Source: an uncultured Muribaculaceae bacterium
GTDB taxonomy: Bacteria; Bacillota_I; Bacilli_A; RF39; UBA660
Direction: 5' to 3'
DNA: 64,000 bases
Assembly: GCA_964560085.1 (NCBI GenBank)
Contig: CAZLKF010000002.1
Location: forward strand, 28,240 to 92,239
In this document: positions 2,330-54,684 of the stretch, in pieces
Layout: each line of letters opens with the position of its first letter
Position numbering within the stretch: position 1 is the stretch's first letter
The notes under the pieces: generated by a model
Told to the model about the DNA's origin: nothing
Databases searched by the model: none
Seen by the model: only the letters and a program-made list of their open reading frames with translations
Translations under genes and position numbers: made by a program

Positions 2330-3832
2330 CTATTTTTTAATTAATGATTTTCCAGTCATCTCAACTGGTTTTTCTATATCCATAAGTTCTAAAATTGTTG
2401 GGGCAATATCTGATAAGGCCCCTGTATTTAATAATTGAGCTTTGCTATTAAAAATAATTAAAGGAACTAAGTTTGTTGTATGTGCTGTCAAAATATTATT
2501 ATCATCATCCAACATCTCTTCGCAATTGCCATGATCAGCAGTTACAATCATTGCTCCGTTTAATTCTTTAACTTTTGTAATTATTTTCCCTAAGCATTCA
2601 TCCATTGCTTCAATTGCTTTTATAGCTGCATCATATACACCAGTATGTCCGACCATATCACCATTAGCAAAATTTAAGATCACTAAATCAAAATCATTTA
2701 AATTTTCTAACACTTTGTCAGTAACTTCATAAACACTCATTTCAGGTTTTAAATCATATGTTGTTACTTTGGGTGATGGCACTAAAATTCTTTTGCAGCC
2801 TTCTAAATCTTTATCCAATCCACCATCAAAGAAATAAGTTACATGTGCATATTTTTCGGTTTCAGCAATTCGTAATTGCTTAAACCCTAGTTTACTAACA
2901 TATTCACCTAAAGTATTATCTAAAGTTGCAAGTTTGAAAGCATTAGTTGTAATCACATCATCGCTCACTTTCATCATCGTAACCAATTTAATATTGTTTA
3001 ACCTCTTTGCAGGAAATTCATTAAAAGATGGATTGGTGATGCTGTAAAATAGTTCTCTTAAGCGATCAGGTCGATAATTAAAGACAATTAAGCCATCATT
3101 ATCATCTATTGTCCCACTATTATCTAAAACTGTTGGCACAATAAATTCATCTGTCACATTATTTGCATAATTATTGTCAATTACTTCTTTATATGAATTT
3201 GCATGAACTCCAAAACCATTTACAATTGCGTCATAAGCAACTTTTATTCTTTCCCAACGATTATCACGATCCATTGCATAAAAACGACCAGAAATAGTTG
3301 CAATGGTTCCAATTTTTGTTTCAAGTATTTTGGCATTCAATTGTTCAAAAAATTGCATAGAAGAATGAGGTAATGTATCTCTACCATCTGTAAAAAGATG
3401 ATAATACACATCTTTTACTTCTTCTTTTTTACACAATTCAATAATTGCTAATAAGTGATTAATAGTTGAATGAATCCCACCATCACTTAAGAGACCAAAA
3501 ATATGCAATTTTGAATTGTTGATTTTAACATGATTTATTACATTCAATAATTGTTCATTTTGAAAAAATTCACCATTCTTTATTTTGGCATTAATTAATT
3601 CTAATGGTTGATATACTACTCTACCTGCACCAATATTTAAATGACCAACTTCTGAATTTCCCATTTGACCAGCTGGTAAGCCTACTGGTTCACCGCTTGC
3701 AGTTAAAGTTGTATGAGGATAATTATTCCATATATAATTAAAATTAGGTTTATTTGCATTAGCAAAAGCATTCCCTTTCACTTTTTCGCTTAAGCCAACT
3801 CCATCTAAAATTGTTAATACTACTGGTTTCAT
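2330..3832 (-). CDS. gpmI: 2,3-bisphosphoglycerate-independent phosphoglycerate mutase
   Basis: 500 aa carrying the iPGM signatures (MKPVVL.ILDG.G, NSEVGHLNIGAGR, ADHGN). Confidence 0.9.
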   Translation of the reverse strand: MKPVVLTILDGVGLSEKVKGNAFANANKPNFNYIWNNYPHTTLTASGEPVGLPAGQMGNSEVGHLNIGAGRVVYQPLELINAKIKNGEFFQNEQLLNVINHVKINNSKLHIFGLLSDGGIHSTINHLLAIIELCKKEEVKDVYYHLFTDGRDTLPHSSMQFFEQLNAKILETKIGTIATISGRFYAMDRDNRWERIKVAYDAIVNGFGVHANSYKEVIDNNYANNVTDEFIVPTVLDNSGTIDDNDGLIVFNYRPDRLRELFYSITNPSFNEFPAKRLNNIKLVTMMKVSDDVITTNAFKLATLDNTLGEYVSKLGFKQLRIAETEKYAHVTYFFDGGLDKDLEGCKRILVPSPKVTTYDLKPEMSVYEVTDKVLENLNDFDLVILNFANGDMVGHTGVYDAAIKAIEAMDECLGKIITKVKELNGAMIVTADHGNCEEMLDDDNNILTAHTTNLVPLIIFNSKAQLLNTGALSDIAPTILELMDIEKPVEMTGKSLIKK

Positions 3833-3836
3833 AAAC

Positions 3837-4706
3837 TCATCTTCCTTCTATTTTTAAACCAAGTCTTTTCACATCATCAGGAATATTCCTTGTTACAGTT
3901 AAACCATTTTTCAAAATACCAAAATTAAACTTATGATAACTGCGAGCTTCGCCATCTAAATTAGCTGAAATAGCATTTGGTATTATAGCTGTGAAATCTA
4001 AATTAGTAATCATTTCTTTCAAGATTTCTGGTTCTGCTTCATGTTGACCTTTTAATACTTTTAATAATAATTTTAGTAATTTTAATCTTGTTACTTCATT
4101 CAATTGATATGCATCTAAAAGGCCATCATTAATTATAGCATTTGGAGCTATTTTAATGCCATTACCATAGTAGCGTCCATTACAAACTGCTAATAGAGTT
4201 ATTTTTTCAAGTGAATAACCTTTTTCAATAATTTGAAAATTTTGCTCTTTTAAGAATTCTCTAATGATTGCTCGTGGATATGGTAAAAATTTAGCAAAAT
4301 GGCGATTTTTTTCAAGAGTTTCAATTACATTAGCATCAAAACCAACTGATGCAATATTTAAGAAATATTCCTGATTCATTATTCCAACATCTATGGTTGC
4401 TGTATCTTCAATTTTACTTTCTTTCAATGTCTTGTAAAAATCATTACCACTTCCAACCGGAATAACTCCCAATATAGCCTTTGATCCAATAATTCCGTTT
4501 GCCACATTATTAAGTGTTCCATCACCACCGACAGCATAAATAATCATCGGTTCTTCTTTATGACTTTCAACCATACTTATTCTAGTAGTTTCCATTGTTG
4601 ACCCCGGAACTAATATTTTTCTATTATCTTTCTTTTTTAAACCGGATAAAACTTTCAAAGATTTCCCATTTCCAGCATAAGGATTTATTATAAATACTTC
4701 TTTCAT
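3837..4706 (-). CDS. lipid kinase, YegS/BmrU/DagK family
   Basis: DAG-kinase catalytic-domain motifs (IINP.AG.GK, AVGGDGTLN), 289 aa. Confidence 0.75.
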   Translation of the reverse strand: MKEVFIINPYAGNGKSLKVLSGLKKKDNRKILVPGSTMETTRISMVESHKEEPMIIYAVGGDGTLNNVANGIIGSKAILGVIPVGSGNDFYKTLKESKIEDTATIDVGIMNQEYFLNIASVGFDANVIETLEKNRHFAKFLPYPRAIIREFLKEQNFQIIEKGYSLEKITLLAVCNGRYYGNGIKIAPNAIINDGLLDAYQLNEVTRLKLLKLLLKVLKGQHEAEPEILKEMITNLDFTAIIPNAISANLDGEARSYHKFNFGILKNGLTVTRNIPDDVKRLGLKIEGR

Positions 4707-4772
4707 ATTATCCCCCTAGTTAATTTTAACATAAAAGATATATTTTTAAAATAAAAAGTTAAAACTATTGTT

Positions 4773-5540
4773 CTAACTTTTCACTTTATGAAATTCTAAT
4801 CTCAACTTATCAGCAATGGTAACAATGAATTCGGAATTAGTAGGTTTAGCTTTGTCTATATCAACACTATGACCAAATATTTCTTCCATCAGATTCCAGC
4901 TTCCACGATTCCAGCTCACTTCAATTGCATGACGGATAGCTCTCTCAACACGTGAAACTGTAGTTGAAAATTTAGATGCTAATTCAGGGTATAATTCTTT
5001 AGTGATGCCACCAATTGTCTCAGGACGCTCATAAATAATACTTATACCTTCTCTAATATATTGATATCCTTTTATATGTGAAGGAATGCCTAATTCGTGT
5101 AAAATTTTAGTAATAGACATATGTAAATTATCGCGCTTAAAATCAATGTTTTTTGTTTCTAAATTCTTCTTTGTAACATCTTGAATTCTTCTTTCTAAAT
5201 CGTCTAAATCAAATGGTTTTAAAATAAAATAATTCACTCCAAATTCTGATACTTGTCTTATAACTTCACTAGCATTATAGCTAGTTGCAACTATGACATT
5301 TTTTTCAATGTTTCTTTTTTTCATTTCCTCTAAAACATAAATTCCGTCTTTTTTTGGCATTATTAAATCAAGAATTATTAAGTCAATTTTATCACCTAAT
5401 TCTTCAATTAATTTTATTCCTTCTTCACCATCATATGCCCAAGAAGTAATTGCTATGTCTTCACTAGTTGCGAAATACTCTTTAATCATTTCTATTAAAT
5501 TTACATTATCATCAATCATCAAAATTTTAGTTTTTTCCAT
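4773..5540 (-). CDS. spo0A: stage 0 sporulation response regulator Spo0A
   Basis: N-terminal receiver domain (D..D....K). The C-terminal Spo0A_C signature [19 protein letters not shown] is diagnostic for Spo0A. Confidence 0.85.
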
Positions 5541-21817: not shown

Positions 21818-21947
21818 ATTATCCTCCCCTCGCCTATATCTAGTATAGACTCGCTCCGTGTAAAAACCTAATAACCCAATCTTATATAAAACAACTTAAC
21901 CGGGTGTATCAGCAACCTCACACATCATTGCGTGCCACACGTTTAAG

Positions 21948-24660: not shown

Positions 24661-24694
24661 ATAATAAAAAAGTAACTACTTTTTGTAATTACTT
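24661..24694 (-). terminator. intrinsic terminator after trpS
   Basis: 10 bp stem with one mismatch (AAGUAAUUAC aaaaa GUAGUUACUU) followed by a U run; it overlaps the trpS stop. Confidence 0.45.
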
Positions 24695-25680
24695 TATCTA
24701 ATTGTGCCAATTTTTTGCTTCATTTGTTCATACTTTTCCTTGGCAATTTTTCTAGTAATACTAGCGCCTTTATCAAGAATAGCATCTAATTCACCACTAT
24801 TCACTAATTCTTCATATCTTACTTGAAAACTAGTGATTTTTTCGGCCGTCACTTCGCCAACATAAGCTTTAAATTCGCCATAGTTTTTGCCAACAAACAT
24901 ATTCTCTAATTCTTCAATCGTTTTACCAGTCATAACACTCGCGATATTTAACAAATTTGATATGCCAGGTTTATTTTCTTCATCATATTTTACTAACATA
25001 TCAGAGTCAGTTGTTGAACTTTTAATTTTTTTGATAATTGTTTCTTTTGAATCATATAAAGAAATTACCCCATTAGGATTTTCTTCTGATTTGCTCATCT
25101 TCTTACTAGGATCTTTCAAATCCTTTATTTTTGTTCCAACTTGCGTAATATATGCAGTAGGAATCTTAAATGTTTCCCCATACGTATGATTAAATCTGAT
25201 TGCAATGTCACGGGCTAATTCAACATGTTGTTTTTGATCTTCGCCAACCGGAACATAATCCGCATCACAGAATAAGATGTCTGATGCCATCAAAACTGGA
25301 TATGTTAATAAGCCAACTGAAAAATTATTTTTTCCTTTGCTTTTCTCCTTAAACTGAATCATTCTTGATGCTTCCCCATAATAAGTGTTGCATTCTAATA
25401 TCCAAGAAATTGCTGGAATAAATTCATTTTCTGATTGAATGTATATTACGACTTTGTTAGAATCTATCCCACATGCAATATAAGTGGCCACAAACCTTTT
25501 TATTCTATCTCTCAATAATTTTGGATCTTGCATCACTGTTAAAGCATGTAAGTCAGCAACAAACAAAAATATTTCATCAAATTCTTTTTGCATTTCAACT
25601 AATTGTCTTATTGCTCCAATATAATTTCCTAATGTTAATTCCCCTGTTGGTTTTAAACCTGTTAATAATCTTTTCTTCAT
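24694..25680 (-). CDS. trpS: tryptophan--tRNA ligase
   Basis: 328 aa; class I motifs (P.GELTLGNYIGA HIGH-like, KMSKS). Confidence 0.9.
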   Translation of the reverse strand: MKKRLLTGLKPTGELTLGNYIGAIRQLVEMQKEFDEIFLFVADLHALTVMQDPKLLRDRIKRFVATYIACGIDSNKVVIYIQSENEFIPAISWILECNTYYGEASRMIQFKEKSKGKNNFSVGLLTYPVLMASDILFCDADYVPVGEDQKQHVELARDIAIRFNHTYGETFKIPTAYITQVGTKIKDLKDPSKKMSKSEENPNGVISLYDSKETIIKKIKSSTTDSDMLVKYDEENKPGISNLLNIASVMTGKTIEELENMFVGKNYGEFKAYVGEVTAEKITSFQVRYEELVNSGELDAILDKGASITRKIAKEKYEQMKQKIGTIR

Positions 25681-25689
25681 AAATTCCTC

Positions 25690-26748
25690 CTATTTATTAC
25701 ATAATTCTAATAATATTTTTTTATATATTCTAACAGTCTCATTTAATGATGACCTACTAATATGTTCATTATCTTTATGAGCTGTAATTGGACCTGGGCC
25801 TAAAATAATTTTATTTTTATTTAAAACACTTGCTTCTGATAAACCAAAGAATTTTTTACATTTTTTGTTTGTTATTTTTTCATAGTATTTAATTATTTCG
25901 TCATTATTATAAAATGGCAGAAAATCAAATTTAATTATATATTCTATATTATGTTTCTTAGCTAAAGCATTAACATATTTCTTAATATGATTATATTCTT
26001 TAACATCTTTTGTAATTCGAAAATCACAAGTAGCTTTGGTATAATTAGGAACAATATTTACTCTTTCTCCACCATTTATTATACCATAATTCATCGTTGT
26101 ATGCCCAAACTCATATTCATCACACCAACTTTTATGAAAATAGCTCTCTAATTTTAACAATTCATTTAAAAATTTCACACATTTTACATTTGAACTTTCA
26201 ATTGGCATACTTGAATGACTGCTTATACCATTAAATCTAAACTCATATTCAATGACGCCTTTTGAACCATTCATCGGTACATTGTCAGTTGGTTCACCAA
26301 TTATCAAATATTCAGGATAATTAAGATTTAAGCTTTTAAAATACTTTATACCGCCAAAGGATATTTCCTCATCATAGGTAAGAATAATTGTCATTCCATA
26401 TTTTAATTCAGCAAAATCTATTTCTGCCACAGCTTTCAAAATTGCGGCAATACCTCCTTTCATATCACTCGTGCCTAAGCCATATAAATTCCCATTGTTT
26501 TCAGTTAATTTAAAAGGATTACCGCCAAAAGTGTTACGATAACTAACAGTATCGGTATGTCCAACAAAGCCAACCGTTTGTTTTTCTTTTATTGTTGCTA
26601 CAAGAATCTTTTTATCCGCCCCATAAAGTGTACATCTAAAATTTAACTTCTCTAGATAATCCTTTACATATTGCATAATTTTCAAATTATCTTGATCATT
26701 AATGGTATTAAATGCAACCAAATCTTTTAATATTTCTTCAACTTTCAT
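25690..26748 (-). CDS. M20 family metallopeptidase / amidohydrolase (ArgE/DapE-like)
   Basis: 352 aa; GHTDTV metal-binding motif and a dimerisation lid. It is the first gene after the Trp T-box leader and lies 9 nt upstream of trpS. Confidence 0.7.
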   Translation of the reverse strand: MKVEEILKDLVAFNTINDQDNLKIMQYVKDYLEKLNFRCTLYGADKKILVATIKEKQTVGFVGHTDTVSYRNTFGGNPFKLTENNGNLYGLGTSDMKGGIAAILKAVAEIDFAELKYGMTIILTYDEEISFGGIKYFKSLNLNYPEYLIIGEPTDNVPMNGSKGVIEYEFRFNGISSHSSMPIESSNVKCVKFLNELLKLESYFHKSWCDEYEFGHTTMNYGIINGGERVNIVPNYTKATCDFRITKDVKEYNHIKKYVNALAKKHNIEYIIKFDFLPFYNNDEIIKYYEKITNKKCKKFFGLSEASVLNKNKIILGPGPITAHKDNEHISRSSLNETVRIYKKILLELCNK

Positions 26749-26761
26749 ATTATCACCTCAC

Positions 26762-27005
26762 AAAAAAATCCTATCCTAATTATTAGGATAAGATTATATT
26801 CTTATTATGCCACCTATAATGACTACTTTGTACTAACATACAAGTTCCTTTGCTAACAGAGGGAATTCTCCGTACTTGCCTACTACAATTTCGGAAGTCT
26901 TTCATTGGCCCATTCAGCAACTTTAATTTATGGTTTTTCATCAACCAACCACTTTCTAAAAAATTAAATATCACTTACTTCTCCAAATCAACAATTTGCT
27001 TTGTT
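26762..27005 (-). ncRNA. T-box riboswitch leader, Trp-specific (specifier UGG)
   Basis: Read on the minus strand. Stem I has a GA/K-turn base (UUGG..UGAU/UGAAA..CCAA) and a distal loop GGUUGAUGAAAA, with the specifier context GAA-UGG-G. The antiterminator is A1 AUUAUAGG/CCUAaUAAU, a 7 nt bulge UGGCAUA (UGGC pairs with tRNA GCCA), A2 AUAAGA/UCUUAU and an F-box-like CUGUUA. The competing terminator UAUCCUAAU a AUUAGGAUA + GGAUUUUUUU lies 13 nt before the RBS. Confidence 0.6.
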
Positions 27006-51353: not shown

Positions 51354-51376
51354 TCAAAAAAAGAGTTTACACTCTT
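51354..51376 (-). terminator. intrinsic terminator after serS
   Basis: AAGAGU guaa ACUCUU plus UUUUUUUG; it overlaps the serS stop. Confidence 0.5.
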
Positions 51377-52668
51377 TATTTTATTTTAAATGGTGTTATT
51401 ACTTCTTTATTGCCCATATATTTCCTTAAAGATTCTGGAATAGTAATACTTCCATCTTCATTGTAATTGTTCTCAAGTAAGGCAATTAAGGCCCTAGTAC
51501 TTGCTAAAACGGTATTATTCAATGTATGAACAAAATATGTGCCATTTTCACCCTTTGCTCTAATACCTAAGCGGCGTGCTTGAGCATCACCTAAAGTTGA
51601 GCAAGAACAAACTTCAAAATATTTTTGTTGTCTAGGACTCCATGCCTCAATATCACATGATTTAACTTTTAAATCGGCCAAATCACCACTACAACATTCA
51701 AGAGTTCTAACTGGAATATTCAAAGTTCTAAATAATTCAACTGAATAATTCCACATTTTGTTATACCAATCCATTGATTCTTCAGGTTTGCATAAAACTA
51801 CCATTTCTTGCTTTTCAAATTGATGAACACGGTAAATTCCACGCTCTTCAATACCATGAGCACCTACTTCTTTTCTAAAACATGGTGAATAACTAGTCAT
51901 TGTTATTGGCAAATTTTCTTCTTTGATTATCTGATCTTTAAATTTTCCAATCATTGAATGTTCACTTGTTCCTATTAAATATAAATCTTCGCCTTCAATT
52001 TTGTACATCATAGCATCCATTTCAGCAAATGACATAACACCATTAACAACATCGCCTCTTATCATAAAGGGTGGCAAACAATAAGTAAAACCTTTATCAA
52101 TCATAAAATCCCTAGCATAACTAATCATTGCACTTATAAGGCGAGCGCCATCGCCCATTAAGTAATAGAAACCATTGCCACTTGTTCTACCTGCACTATC
52201 TTTATCAAGACCATTAAAACTTTCTAAAATATCAGCATGATATGGTATTTCATAAGCAGGAACAATTGGTTCTCCGAATTTTTGATTTTCAACATTTTTA
52301 GTGTCATTTTCACCAATTGGCACCGAAGCGTCAATAATATTTGGTATTACCATCATCTTATTTTTAATTTCAATTGCTAATTGTTCTTCTGCTTGATCTA
52401 ATTCTGTTATTCTATCACCATATGAAGCGATTTGTTCCTTAACTTGCATCGCTTCTTCTTTTTTGCCATCACGCATTAAATTACCAATTAAAGCACTTTT
52501 AGCGTTTTTTTCGGCTCTTAAAGCATCACCTTTTTGTTTCGCTTCACGATATTTTAAATCAAGATCATAAATTTCATCAACTAAAGGTAATTTTTGATCT
52601 TGAAATTTCTTCTTTATATTTTCTTTAACTAATTCTTTATTTTCTCTTATTAAATTAATGTCTATCAT
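51376..52668 (-). CDS. serS: serine--tRNA ligase
   Basis: 430 aa; N-terminal coiled-coil arm; class II core (…FRKEVGAHG…, …GDAQARRLGIR…). Confidence 0.9.
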   Translation of the reverse strand: MIDINLIRENKELVKENIKKKFQDQKLPLVDEIYDLDLKYREAKQKGDALRAEKNAKSALIGNLMRDGKKEEAMQVKEQIASYGDRITELDQAEEQLAIEIKNKMMVIPNIIDASVPIGENDTKNVENQKFGEPIVPAYEIPYHADILESFNGLDKDSAGRTSGNGFYYLMGDGARLISAMISYARDFMIDKGFTYCLPPFMIRGDVVNGVMSFAEMDAMMYKIEGEDLYLIGTSEHSMIGKFKDQIIKEENLPITMTSYSPCFRKEVGAHGIEERGIYRVHQFEKQEMVVLCKPEESMDWYNKMWNYSVELFRTLNIPVRTLECCSGDLADLKVKSCDIEAWSPRQQKYFEVCSCSTLGDAQARRLGIRAKGENGTYFVHTLNNTVLASTRALIALLENNYNEDGSITIPESLRKYMGNKEVITPFKIK

Positions 52669-53120
52669 TTTAATTCCTCCAATTTTGCTTGTATTTTTAT
52701 GTAAGCTGGTCGATATCTTTTCTCTACTCTATCCATATCTTTTATGGTTGGATTTTTTATACGTGAAATATCCATGTTATGATTTAAATCAGCTAATTTC
52801 ACATTTAAAGCATCAATATTGTTCGAGGCAACAATACGATCTATATACTCCCTATAATCTTCATTATCTTTTCTTGTTAATATTTGAATTGCTTCGATTA
52901 TCTCCATAGCAAAGCCTGCTTCTTTTAAATCTTCGGCTGTCATATTAGTATCTTCAATAACATCATGTAAAAGACCAATTATTTTGGTATTTTCACCACT
53001 CACGCGATTGCTTACCTCATAAAGATGATCTAGGTAAGGATACCCACCCTTATCTAGTTTGTCAGAAAATAAATTTTTAATTATTTCCTCACTTTTTTCC
53101 AAAGCATTAAATTCTTTCAT
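52665..53120 (-). CDS. small alarmone hydrolase: HD-domain (p)ppGpp pyrophosphohydrolase of the RelA/SpoT hydrolase family
   Basis: 151 aa single domain; HD (YLDH), LLHDVIEDT and KLADLNHNM motifs match the SpoT/Mesh1 hydrolase signature. Start ATG 53120 follows GGAGGA; the stop overlaps the serS start. Confidence 0.75.
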   Translation of the reverse strand: MKEFNALEKSEEIIKNLFSDKLDKGGYPYLDHLYEVSNRVSGENTKIIGLLHDVIEDTNMTAEDLKEAGFAMEIIEAIQILTRKDNEDYREYIDRIVASNNIDALNVKLADLNHNMDISRIKNPTIKDMDRVEKRYRPAYIKIQAKLEELK

Positions 53121-53124
53121 ATAT

Positions 53125-53300
53125 CCTCCTCTACAAAAAAAGACTATTATAGGAGTGCCTTGCACGGTACCATCCTACTAGTCCTTAATTTTTATAACGG
53201 TTCCCCGGAGAAGTTTTGCTTCTCTCATCCGAAGTAGATTCATAAATTTAATTGACTAGTTTCCATCAACCACTAATTTTCTATCACAATACCATTTATT
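53125..53300 (-). ncRNA. T-box riboswitch leader, Ser-specific (specifier UCU)
   Basis: Read on the minus strand: Stem I distal loop GGUUGAUGGAAA; specifier context GAA-UCU-A; F-box CCGUUA. The T-box core UAGUAGGAUGGUACCGUG matches the AGGGUGGNACCGCG consensus with a canonical 7 nt bulge UGGUACC, a small helix GUGC aag GCAC, then UCCUAUAAUAGUC and U7 right before the RBS. Confidence 0.65.
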
Positions 53301-53346
53301 ACTATTCTTCTTCAACGATTTACAATGTTATTATACATTCTGCCAT

Positions 53347-54684
53347 TTATTTAGTCAACTCTTGTAAAACAATTTGCTTGAATTCATTTCCTCTTTCTTC
53401 AAAGCTCTTATATTGATCCCATGATGCACATGCTGGGCTTAAAAGAATAACATCATTAGAACTTGATTCTTTGTAAGCTGTCGTAACAGCTTCTCTTAAA
53501 TTATTGACAACATAACATCTAATATTTAATTTATTAATAAATTCTTCAATTTTATATTTAGTTTCTCCGTAACAAACAACACATTTAACATTTGTCATAA
53601 ATGGTTCTAGATCATCAAATGGCAGATTGCGATCTAATCCTCCCAACAACAAAATTGTTGGTACTTTAAAGGCATTTAAAGCTATCTGAGTTGATCTAAC
53701 ATTTGTCGATTTTGAATCATTGTAAAATTCACGATCATTTATTTTACCAACAAACTCAATACGATGTTCAACTCCTTTAAATGTTTCTAAAGTTTCTTTT
53801 ATTACTTTAGTTCCAACATTAAGTCGCTTAGCAACTAATATAGCACACATCATATTCTCATAATTGTGATTACCTTTTAAAATTACTTTATCAGTATCAA
53901 CTATTGCTTCATCTTGATAATAAATAACTCCATCCTTCAAATAACTATCTGCTTTATTTAGACTTGAAAAATATTCTTTTGTACTTCCTATATTTTTTGT
54001 CTCATCCATAACATCTTGATTTTCCATGTTTAAGATTGCTAAGTCATCAATAGTTTGGTGTCTAAAAATCAAGCATTTATTATGCTTATAATTTTCATAA
54101 GTTCCAAAATGATCTAAATGGACAACACTTAAATTTGTCATAACAGCAATATCCACCTTAAAGTTAACAAAATCATGTAATTGATGTCCTGATATTTCTA
54201 AAACTAAAATGTCATTCTCTTTTACATCTGCCAACAAACTGGACATTGGATAACCAATATTTCCACCTAAATGAACTGGTAATCCTGCATTTTTTAAAAC
54301 TTCATATATTAAAGTTGTTGTTGTCGTTTTTCCATTAGAACCAGTAATACCTATAATTTTTACGTTTTTAGGTAACAAATTATAAGCAACCTCTAATTCA
54401 TTAATAACTGGGATATTCAAACTTTCGGCTTTAACGACGGTAGGATTAGTAAATTTAATCCCGGGGTTCTTAATAACATAGTCAAACGTTTTATCTAATA
54501 ACTCATCTTGTTTATCTGTTATAAACACTTGTACTCCTAAAGACTTTAATTCATTTATTTTGTCCTCATCATCACCCTTTAAATCAGTAACAATGACTTC
54601 ATTATTACGAGCAATAAGGACTTTTGCAACTTCGTATCCACTTCTAGCCAATCCTAATACTAGAAATTTTTGATTTTTATACAT
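53347..54684 (-). CDS. murD: UDP-N-acetylmuramoylalanine--D-glutamate ligase
   Basis: Mur ligase P-loop GITGSNGKTTTT and the MurD N-terminal Rossmann domain. Confidence 0.85.
   Translation of the reverse strand: MYKNQKFLVLGLARSGYEVAKVLIARNNEVIVTDLKGDDEDKINELKSLGVQVFITDKQDELLDKTFDYVIKNPGIKFTNPTVVKAESLNIPVINELEVAYNLLPKNVKIIGITGSNGKTTTTTLIYEVLKNAGLPVHLGGNIGYPMSSLLADVKENDILVLEISGHQLHDFVNFKVDIAVMTNLSVVHLDHFGTYENYKHNKCLIFRHQTIDDLAILNMENQDVMDETKNIGSTKEYFSSLNKADSYLKDGVIYYQDEAIVDTDKVILKGNHNYENMMCAILVAKRLNVGTKVIKETLETFKGVEHRIEFVGKINDREFYNDSKSTNVRSTQIALNAFKVPTILLLGGLDRNLPFDDLEPFMTNVKCVVCYGETKYKIEEFINKLNIRCYVVNNLREAVTTAYKESSSNDVILLSPACASWDQYKSFEERGNEFKQIVLQELTK

Follow-up and report, generated by a model that had tools for sequence, protein, structure and literature searches.

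Two questions are raised by a serine-type T-box leader that precedes an HD-domain hydrolase gene and serS: why would uncharged tRNA(Ser) induce an alarmone hydrolase just when RelA should be making ppGpp, and how does a leader terminate transcription when a U-tract follows its antiterminator almost at once? Both stem from an original prediction made on a 64,000-nucleotide stretch of contig CAZLKF010000002.1, here called the window, which assigned the hydrolase to the SpoT/Mesh1 type. Our analysis favors, as the probable reading, a two-gene operon that has a promoter of its own, a T-box leader that senses tRNA(Ser), a variant terminator, and genes for a predicted Aph1-family hydrolase and seryl-tRNA synthetase (Table 1).

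Table 1. Features of the T-box, HD gene and serS locus in window coordinates, listed in the direction of transcription.
Feature	Position	Strand	Remarks
Sigma-70-type promoter	53330..53358	-	TTGACT 53358..53353, 17-nt spacer, TATAAT 53335..53330
T-box leader	53148..53323	-	Stem I, short Stem II without S-turn, Stem IIA/F-box, antiterminator
Specifier codon UCU (Ser)	53236..53238	-	context GAA-UCU-A at 53241..53235
Stem IIA hairpin and F-box, CGGGGAACCGUUA	53195..53207	-	RF00230 alignment; F-box CCGUUA inside
P0 5' strand, AAGGACUA	53179..53186	-	occupies the place of the RRRx purine string and the stem III 5' strand
Antiterminator core	53149..53178	-	RF00230 alignment
A1 5' strand, GUAGGA	53178..53173	-	
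Antiterminator bulge, UGGUACC	53172..53166	-	
A2 hairpin, GUGCAAGGCAC	53165..53155	-	
A1 3' strand, UCCUAU	53154..53149	-	
P0 3' strand, UAGUCUUU	53139..53146	-	runs into the U7 tract
U7 tract	53135..53141	-	exactly seven U; starts 8 nt past the antiterminator 3' strand
Shine-Dalgarno of the HD gene, GAGGAGGA	53124..53131	-	
HD-domain protein, 151 aa	52665..53120	-	Aph1 family, predicted (p)ppApp 3'-pyrophosphohydrolase
serS, seryl-tRNA synthetase, 430 aa	51376..52668	-	
Terminator-like hairpin AAAGAGU-GUAA-ACUCUUU, then U run	51356..51377	-	by eye and fold; probable operon end

The hallmarks that had been proposed for a Ser T-box were all located on the minus strand: the core sequence UAGUAGGAUGGUACCGUG, the UGGUACC bulge, the GAA-UCU-A specifier and the CCGUUA F-box. 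Scanning with the Rfam T-box model RF00230, the check suggested with that proposal, returned an end-to-end match (model positions 1-219; 53323..53148) of 80 bits and E = 6.1e-18, with UCU in the specifier position. Because the curated gathering score of the model is 93, the window leader goes unreported in a default scan; its shortfall stems from the short Stem II and a missing insert. The match is far beyond chance despite its sub-cut-off score. Orthologous leaders in relatives scored 87-113 bits with RF00230, and a model of Stem I (R1) gave 98.7 bits on the window leader. In the covariance-model alignment, the specifier column read UCU or UCA in every homologous leader upstream of an HD gene or serS. 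Across 17 relatives, A1 was 98.8% and A2 98.5% paired, with compensatory changes, and in the window and its relatives the bulge conformed to UGGNACC with N being U or C. The discriminator of bacterial tRNA(Ser) is generally G73, with which either base could pair; no tRNA genes were found within the window. Judged by these sequence features, the leader is a Ser-specific T-box whose UGGU bulge is predicted to be able to pair with the tRNA 3' end.

The 3' domain of this leader is unusual. A Trp T-box elsewhere in the window is canonical: it contains stem III, and its terminator pairs a downstream strand with the antiterminator 3' half. The stem III hairpin is absent from the Ser leader, which has 1 nt (0-1 nt in orthologues) where RF00230 allows a 17-19-nt insert, and no hairpin can form in the 17-nt A-rich linker from the F-box to A1. 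The AAG of the purine string is kept, and the purine motif as a whole, AAGGAC...UAG, departs from the RRRxG...AA consensus. A U7 run close behind the antiterminator 3' strand, with no separate terminator strand downstream, had been noted previously and is present, with 8 nt between the two. The antiterminator 3' half does not serve as the terminator 5' strand here; the strand that precedes the U-tract pairs upstream of A1. Together, this P0 3' strand and U7 (53135..53146) form an intrinsic-terminator-like element. Folding of the two conformers gave -14.2 kcal/mol for P0 with A1 and A2 compared with -6.4 for A1 and A2 alone, and the terminator fold had z = -2.3. On its sequence, then, the putative terminator is the helix AAGGACUA/UAGUCUUU followed by U7, and it encloses the whole antiterminator.

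In 17 related leaders, each of them without stem III, P0 was found to covary. Four of the seven P0 pairs were altered on both sides, cognate P0 strands paired at -6.9 kcal/mol compared with -4.6 for non-cognate strands (permutation p ~5e-5), and the P0 covariation score was 0.296 compared with 0.097 in shuffles (0 of 500 reached 0.296) and at most 0.054 in slid registers. The underlying 3'-domain alignment (MAFFT, U-runs trimmed) retains one shifted row, L119, which counts against P0. This covariation bears out the non-canonical geometry that the original prediction had suspected, and supports the second of its two options, an extended GACUA..UAGUC helix. Nor is the arrangement confined to this operon; it was also seen in leaders of Thr and Ala type from the same bacterial group. 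Stem III is missing from more than 80 natural leaders, and in about 18 of these a covarying helix surrounds the antiterminator. All leaders classed as type C have a U-run immediately 3' of P0 in a fold-based platform classification that mis-typed a few leaders by reading a loop U-run as a terminator tract.

P0 and the antiterminator do not compete for base pairs, and the switch must therefore differ from the canonical one. Nor did we find a competitor helix for either P0 strand that was conserved across leaders among the candidates considered (the Stem I 3' strand ACUAGUC, the IIA loop and the Shine-Dalgarno region). We propose that the conserved AAG purine string, a motif whose role has been described (PMC7583486), is contained within the P0 5' strand and could make the decision. 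Without uncharged tRNA, AAG would pair with CUU/UUU and the terminator would form; tRNA-dependent docking would withhold AAG from P0 and so weaken the terminator base. With AAG docked, P0 would lose its three foot pairs and retain five inner base pairs, at -11.6 kcal/mol with A1 and A2, and these remaining pairs count against the proposal. That P0 and the antiterminator are not mutually exclusive would also suit a translational decision, in which the P0 hairpin and U7 are a constitutive partial attenuator and the A1 3' strand, as CUCCUAU, acts on the Shine-Dalgarno. CUCCUA(U) is indeed complementary to the Shine-Dalgarno region, by up to 7 bp in the leader L084. CUCC/GGAG complementarity, however, follows automatically from the T-box consensus and holds for most T-boxes, and the window pairing amounts to just 5 bp plus 2 bp with a mismatch. 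Moreover, the U-run directly after P0 in all type-C leaders is a feature absent from known translational T-boxes such as those of actinobacterial ileS. We therefore give the translational decision little credence and retain transcription termination at P0 as the preferred reading.

Upstream of the leader, a sigma-70-type promoter with 11 of 12 consensus matches was the top-scoring site of the region covered by a consensus scan. It overlaps the end of murD, and the T-box model starts ~7 nt downstream of its -10 element. The product of the distal gene is a seryl-tRNA synthetase by TIGR00414 (409 bits; cut-off 301.65) and by the Pfam domains Seryl_tRNA_N and tRNA-synt_2b. As had been noted, the TGA stop of the HD gene and the ATG of serS overlap by 4 nt as ATGA (52668..52665). 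A promoter between the two genes would have spoken for independent transcription; the consensus scan found 15 promoter-like sites within the HD gene compared with 14.0 +/- 4.1 expected, none of them above background. The overlap, the promoter scan and the adjacency kept in relatives agree with the claim that the HD gene and serS are one unit. The hairpin after serS, with fewer than three G-C pairs in its stem and for that reason unreported by the consensus scan, is the probable end of the operon. By the established T-box mechanism, uncharged tRNA(Ser) would permit RNA polymerase to read through the leader, and both SerRS and the hydrolase would be made.

A search of related genomes, which had been recommended as a check on co-occurrence, found the HD gene next to serS behind a Ser T-box in 9 of 11 relatives looked up (46-80% identity), among which the flanking genes vary. 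In eight of them (P0016, P0041, P0072, P0028, P0045, P0036, P0088 and P0059) serS comes after HD, mostly with a stop and a start codon that overlap or abut, and in P0115 a single GNAT gene separates the two; the family members P0055 and P0064 lie away from serS. Ser T-boxes were located upstream in L081, L084, L087, L090, L096, L218 and L219, and the HD-serS pair in L093 is without one. A contig scan with the protein alignment was dominated by generic RSH patterns and yielded relatives of at most 44% identity, which were used as a negative control for serS linkage: 0 of 68 distant HD homologues had serS within 3 kb. The pairing is thus specific to this subfamily.

In this lineage, slots between T-boxes and their aminoacyl-tRNA synthetase genes can pick up unrelated genes, and the HD gene might be such a passenger, its co-regulation with serS functionally meaningless. 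In other operons, the slot between the Ser T-box and serS holds DUF1653, an M19 dipeptidase, GNAT acetyltransferases or a nucleotidyltransferase, and an M20 peptidase gene precedes trpS behind the Trp T-box of the window. Against this, the HD-serS pairing is retained in differing neighborhoods at protein identities between 46% and 80%, its stop and start codons usually overlap or abut, and it is confined to one HD subfamily. The persistence of the pairing argues for selection on co-expression, and we regard a meaningless association as unlikely.

What the hydrolase acts on determines whether its induction is paradoxical. The motifs LLHDVIEDT and KLADLNHNM, on which its assignment to the SpoT/Mesh1-type (p)ppGpp hydrolases was based, are present in the 151-aa ORF (53120..52665), as are the metal-binding residues H32, H52-D53 and D111. 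Sequence, structure model and specificity residues nonetheless point away from that assignment and to Aph1. Among PDB sequences searched with phmmer, the best solved relative was 7SMG (E 5.8e-24, compared with 1e-6 for Rel and 3e-4 for Mesh1). An AF2 model of the protein (pLDDT 95.8) matched 7SMG in Foldseek with TM 0.87/0.93 (0.93 relative to the target), rmsd 1.2 A and 41% identity over 141 columns, compared with TM 0.63-0.77 and 17-22% identity for Mesh1, PaSAH and RelH. The metal and catalytic residues H32, H52-D53, E56-D57 and D111 align with Aph1 H33, H53-D54, E57-D58 and D110, and are invariant in 34 homologues save for D57 (at least 90%). The Aph1 specificity signature comprises D24, R96, D116, R119, K133 and Y134 (PMC10083569), and the corresponding window residues D23, R95, D117, R120, K134 and Y136 are identical to it. 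Within the subfamily, D23 and R120 never vary, conservation of D117 and Y136 is 90% or more, and some members differ at R95 and K134. The positions equivalent to TtRel R43/R44 are D23 and K24 here, as in Aph1. The protein has the compact Aph1 fold and lacks the additional helices that ppGpp hydrolases have at both termini; the marks of the Mesh1/SpoT type, guanine-recognizing residues and at least nine helices, were not seen in it. By sequence and model, the HD protein looks like a member of the Aph1 family and is predicted to hydrolyze (p)ppApp, not (p)ppGpp.

All 12 Aph1-family members tested hydrolyze ppApp, and 2 of the 12 had modest ppGpp activity (PMC10083569), by analogy with which some ppGpp activity may also be present here. 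The latter activity, the RSH-hydrolase motifs HD, ED and KLADxxHNM, and weak matches to TIGR00691 spoT_relA (2.5e-10) and Pfam HD_4 would all accord with a protein that degrades (p)ppGpp, so that uncharged tRNA(Ser) would induce a damping of the stringent response. We consider this very unlikely: in sequence and structure alike, Aph1 is a much closer relative of the protein than any ppGpp hydrolase is, the protein matches Aph1 in its compact length (~150 aa), and it keeps D23 and R120, the counterparts of Aph1 D24 and R119, whose mutation confers ppGpp activity on Aph1 (PMC10083569). With the hydrolase assigned to the Aph1 family, the paradox of inducing it while RelA makes ppGpp largely disappears and was probably never real. 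Homology suggests instead that the enzyme would act on adenosine nucleotides ((p)ppApp), cleaving off their 3'-pyrophosphate, and spare (p)ppGpp. In serine-starved cells, SerRS would accordingly increase and adenosine alarmones would be broken down, with the stringent-response signal left untouched.

A different substrate would explain why a hydrolase gene lies beside an aminoacyl-tRNA synthetase gene: the enzyme could repair tRNA by stripping a 3'-pyrophosphate, added by a toxSAS of the FaRel2/CapRel type, from the terminal adenosine, restoring a substrate for SerRS. Since the modification leaves a 3'-pyrophosphate on an adenosine, it would fit the preference of Aph enzymes for adenine. The source of FaRel2 is Coprobacillus sp. 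D7, a member of the Erysipelotrichaceae, and the closest named relatives of the window SerRS are from Erysipelotrichaceae and Bacilli MAGs. Some SAHs, MESH1 and ATfaRel, do restore aminoacylation of tRNA modified by FaRel2 (bioRxiv 10.1101/2021.04.30.441581). Yet none of the loci showed a toxSAS gene in its flanks, and FaRel2 favors tRNA(Gly) and tRNA(Thr) over tRNA(Ser) (PMC11245113). In addition, the steric filter of the T-box would probably exclude tRNA that carries a 3'-pyrophosphate, just as it excludes charged tRNA, and such tRNA would not induce the operon. For these reasons tRNA repair seems to us improbable, and hydrolysis of (p)ppApp remains the preferred function. Membership in a known defense system was dropped when PADLOC gave no match, and nothing supports, for this fold, a link to Ap4A via SerRS (PMC10148737).

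What the widespread Aph (p)ppApp hydrolases do physiologically, other than in toxin immunity, is an open question according to their discoverers (PMC10083569), and the terms "serS", "seryl" and "T-box" are absent from the main text of that report. Our results tie one Aph subfamily to serS and to a defined signal, uncharged tRNA(Ser), and predict that adenosine 3'-pyrophosphate compounds go up under serine limitation. Current T-box models hold that stem III is universal and needed for capture of the tRNA 3' end, and that the terminator competes for the antiterminator 3' strand; leaders without stem III and with an enclosing helix challenge both assumptions. Such leaders are missed by standard annotation, as they score below the Rfam cut-off, and they offer compact natural templates for mechanistic work. 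We tentatively suggest that they may represent an undescribed T-box class, which would lack stem III, have a terminator that encloses and does not compete, and decide by purine-string competition or a route without helix exchange, and that this may be the first control of a (p)ppApp-type hydrolase by tRNA charging. If true, adenosine alarmones or 3'-pyrophosphorylated tRNA ends would gain a housekeeping role in how one group of gut Bacilli copes with starvation.

Compared with known transcriptional T-boxes (RF00230), such as B. subtilis tyrS and glyQS, the window leader shares Stem I with its GA motif, the specifier loop codon followed by a purine, the distal loop motifs, the Stem IIA/F-box, the UGGN bulge between A1 and A2, a U-tract terminator and a downstream aminoacyl-tRNA synthetase gene. 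It differs in lacking stem III, with a 17-nt linker between F-box and A1, in a short Stem II without S-turn, in an A2 foot pair that is G-C and not G-U, and in a terminator that leaves the antiterminator 3' strand unused and encloses an intact antiterminator.

The hydrolase shares with Aph1, the adenosine 3'-pyrophosphohydrolase 1 of Bacteroides caccae (PDB 7SMG; PMC10083569), a compact all-helical HD fold of ~150 aa, 41% identity, the metal and catalytic residues listed above together with N115, and all six specificity residues. Aph1 belongs to a phage-associated three-gene cluster and provides immunity against Apk2, a MuF-fused (p)ppApp synthetase toxin (Ahmad et al. 2023, PMC10083569), whereas the window gene is chromosomal, lies between murD and serS with no toxin gene nearby, and is predicted to be under T-box control and translationally coupled to serS. 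With the Mesh1/SpoT-type SAHs (Mesh1, PaSAH and RelH) it has in common the HD-domain RSH hydrolase fold and catalytic motifs, at ~20% identity and TM of at most 0.77; those proteins are 175-200 aa long with extra helices and carry guanine-contacting residues, in contrast to the Aph-type D23 and R120 found here.

The HD-domain protein and seryl-tRNA synthetase are encoded by a single minus-strand operon, whose features are collected in the table below. The motifs named in the original prediction were all found where it had placed them, and its proposal that the HD gene and serS form one operon is supported by the overlap of the HD stop codon with the serS start codon (ATGA), by promoter-like sites within the HD gene that a promoter scan rated no better than background, and by conservation of the pairing in relatives. 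The window lineage is an uncultured, low-GC, gut Bacilli-type, peptidoglycan-making one; the closest named SerRS relatives are from MAGs labelled Erysipelotrichaceae (the family that includes Coprobacillus sp. D7), Bacilli and Candidatus Pelethosoma.

Features of the two T-box operons and the other structured leaders in the window
Feature	Position	Strand	Remarks
murD	54684..53347	minus	Mur ligase domains
Promoter TTGACT-17-TATAAT	53358..53330	minus	near-consensus, 11/12 matches
Leader, ~200 nt	between promoter and Shine-Dalgarno sequence	minus	
RF00230 match	53323..53148	minus	full length
Shine-Dalgarno sequence GAGGAGGA	ahead of 151-aa ORF	minus	
151-aa ORF (HD protein)	53120..52665	minus	
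serS	52668..51376	minus	TIGR00414, 409 bits
Weak hairpin, then U run	51377..51356	minus	
murI	next after hairpin and U run	minus-strand reading order	
Trp T-box	27000..26781	minus	specifier UGG
M20 peptidase gene, after Trp T-box	25690-26748	minus	
trpS, after M20 peptidase gene	24694-25680	minus	
S10-Clostridia leader	21830-21936	minus	
L20 leader	1168-1288	minus	

An Rfam scan of the window at default settings reported no match. The predicted T-box was recovered by a permissive scan of the leader, as a full-length match of 80 bits (E 6.1e-18), which falls below the RF00230 gathering score of 93. The leader carries a UGGUACC bulge and the specifier GAA-UCU-A, and its cognate ligand is therefore tRNA(Ser). 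The Trp T-box (79.5 bits) is likewise below the Rfam cut-off, and the L20 leader (58.2 bits versus 58.7) and S10-Clostridia leader (33.9 versus 35.1) lie just under theirs; each of the window's four structured leaders thus escapes default annotation.

As the original prediction had noted, the U7 run follows the antiterminator 3' strand almost directly; a terminator 3' strand of the canonical type would not fit into the 8 nt between them. We found that UAGUCUUU (53146..53139), before the U-tract, pairs with AAGGACUA (53186..53179), just upstream of antiterminator helix A1, forming an enclosing helix, P0, and hence a single long hairpin of P0, A1, bulge and A2 that runs into U7. Folding, which had been proposed with that prediction, gave a minimum free energy of -16.2 kcal/mol for the 56-nt segment; P0+A1+A2 comes to -14.2 kcal/mol, versus -6.4 for the antiterminator core without P0. 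Orthologous leaders share the P0-A1-A2 layout, and a metagenome scan for stem-III-less T-box cores (pattern AATTAAG-N7-9-AGGATGGNACCG) identified at least 80 loci. Comparison of the leaders demonstrated that the P0 helix covaries: cognate strands pair at -6.9 kcal/mol versus -4.6 for non-cognate ones (permutation p ~5e-5), positions individually exchange C-G, U-A and A-U, and among 17 aligned sequences both partners are exchanged in 4 of the 7 P0 pairs, with 92% of cells paired. For the structure as a whole, this alignment gives a covariation score of 0.296, versus 0.097 in shuffles; none of 500 shuffles attains 0.296, and each slid register scores at most 0.054. Stem III is missing from all these leaders, in which the 17-19-nt insert of the Rfam model shrinks to 0-1 nt; we found no description of stem-III-less T-boxes in the literature searched.

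When about 86 leaders without stem III were classified by fold, three platforms emerged: canonical (A, about 30), 'mirror' (B, about 38, the most frequent design among these leaders) and enclosing helix (C, about 18, including the window leader). In the mirror platform (L098, L108, L114, L145, L141, L095 and about 30 more loci of L097-L176), the T-box sequence AAGGAUGGUAC is itself captured by GUACCAUYCUU, a strand that lies downstream and leads into a U-run, and this pairing leaves the A1 3' strand as a loop; we found no account of such a design in the papers searched. Some leaders specifying Thr (ACU) or Ala (GCU) are also of type C, which is thus a lineage-level variant rather than a peculiarity of the HD-serS operon. 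Within the window, the type C Ser leader differs from the Trp T-box, which is canonical, with stem III and a downstream terminator strand. Some stem-III-less T-boxes precede genes atypical for T-box regulons: DNMK-like P-loop kinases (L135, L165, L110, L130), cmk (L174, L140, L151), GNAT (L173) and HD (L128). The specifier reads as Ala (GCU) in L165, L173 and L174, and is ambiguous between Thr (ACU) and Tyr (UAC) in L130.

The analysis establishes a Ser specifier, a UGGU bulge and a covarying enclosing helix directly followed by a U-tract, ahead of coupled HD and serS genes. If the leader works as established for T-boxes, tRNA(Ser) in its uncharged state would bind specifier and bulge and thereby permit read-through. 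Because P0 and the antiterminator are nested, not exclusive, they cannot switch by the usual competition between strands. Solved T-box-tRNA complexes (role of the purine string, PMC7583486) show another partner for only one part of P0, the AAG purines at the 5' end of its 5' strand. We therefore propose that the docked AAG and the P0 base, in which AAG pairs with CUU/UUU, would be mutually exclusive. Removing the three AAG pairs leaves 5 inner pairs, at -11.6 kcal/mol with A1 and A2. Alternatives are that steric or linker-tension effects operate the switch in place of AAG competition, or that it is purely translational, through CUCCUA:UAGGAG pairing.

The HD protein has weak matches to Pfam HD_4 (18 bits) and NCBIfam spoT_relA. 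Among sequences of solved structures, its best match by far is the '(p)ppApp hydrolase' 7SMG (149 aa, E 5.8e-24), with Rel/SpoT hydrolase domains at ~1e-6 and Mesh1 at 3e-4. 7SMG is Aph1 of Bacteroides caccae; ppApp is hydrolysed by Aph1 and by each of the 12 homologues tested, only two of which have modest ppGpp activity, and six residues (D24, R96, D116, R119, K133, Y134) define the family; a D24R/R119A double change confers ppGpp activity on Aph1 (PMC10083569). The HD protein has identical residues at all six positions (D23, R95, D117, R120, K134, Y136) and also shares the metal and catalytic residues. A confident AlphaFold model (pLDDT 95.8, 34 homologues in the input) superimposes on Aph1 (7SMG) at an rmsd of 1.2 A, with TM 0.87/0.93 and 41% identity, versus TM of at most 0.77 and ~20% identity for Mesh1, PaSAH, RelH and Rel. 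Match, specificity residues and model therefore identify the HD protein as an Aph-family member and predicted (p)ppApp hydrolase. The (p)ppGpp hydrolase of the original prediction becomes less likely, and the paradox proposed there, of ppGpp breakdown while RelA is making it, falls away together with that assignment. At E <=1e-10 the superfamily comprises 5,314 clusters and is thus large, but the close subfamily is small (18 at E <=1e-30); related phage proteins are present in PHROGs, and none was found in PADLOC. The best-scoring library representative outside the immediate cluster, P0242 (319 aa), has two Aph-like stretches, apparently a tandem domain duplication.

Co-occurrence in related genomes, which the original prediction had suggested as a check, was examined on contigs of 11 family members (46-71% identity): serS immediately follows HD in 8 (P0016, P0041, P0072, P0028, P0045, P0036, P0088, P0059), usually with an overlap or 1-2-nt gap, a GNAT gene intervenes in one (P0115), and two lack the linkage (P0055, P0064). 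Flanking genes vary between lineages. Among 68 distant HD homologues belonging to other phyla, not one has serS less than 3 kb away, so the link is specific to this subfamily. A Ser T-box (UCU or UCA) lies directly ahead of HD at six loci (L081, L084, L087, L090, L218, L219), and ~2 kb upstream at L096, where it heads a six-gene operon. Ser T-boxes also lie upstream of HD at L095, L119, L141, L145, L156 and L147. The HD-serS pair of L093 (2243-4031; P0028, 59% identity) has only 94 nt of upstream gap and lacks a T-box, so that at least one lineage keeps the two genes coupled in the absence of the riboswitch. At L095, serS after HD was called as two ORFs (3503-4786; 166 and 257 aa), from a frameshift or assembly error; this contig also carries RNase P RNA (1118-1461).

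Other genes occupy the slot between Ser T-box and serS in relatives: DUF1653 (L103, L160), M19 dipeptidase (L104, L163), GNAT (L166, L176, L090) and nucleotidyltransferase (L147, which has a second Ser-type T-box directly upstream of HD-serS). The Trp operon of the window, like the Ser operon, runs T-box, passenger gene, aaRS gene. This order is a habit of the lineage, and co-regulation alone is thus no proof of a serine-specific hydrolase function. Serine limitation would raise SerRS together with an enzyme predicted to strip 3'-pyrophosphates from adenosine nucleotides. The small alarmone synthetases of Firmicutes are able to produce ppApp as well as guanosine alarmones (PMC7492591), and such a by-product would be cleared by a hydrolase specific for (p)ppApp, leaving (p)ppGpp untouched. 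A bolder alternative to ppApp clearance is that the HD protein may repair tRNA CCA ends pyrophosphorylated by toxSAS enzymes, a reaction within reach of some small alarmone hydrolases; one such toxSAS originates from Coprobacillus sp. D7 (bioRxiv 10.1101/2021.04.30.441581).

The original observation is thus confirmed and its interpretation partly supported. Both components, T-box and Aph, are of known kinds. Their combination, in which an Aph gene shares a conserved operon with serS under a Ser T-box that has no stem III and a terminator enclosing its antiterminator, appears undescribed in the literature searched (gene-neighbourhood tables in the Aph paper's supplement excepted).
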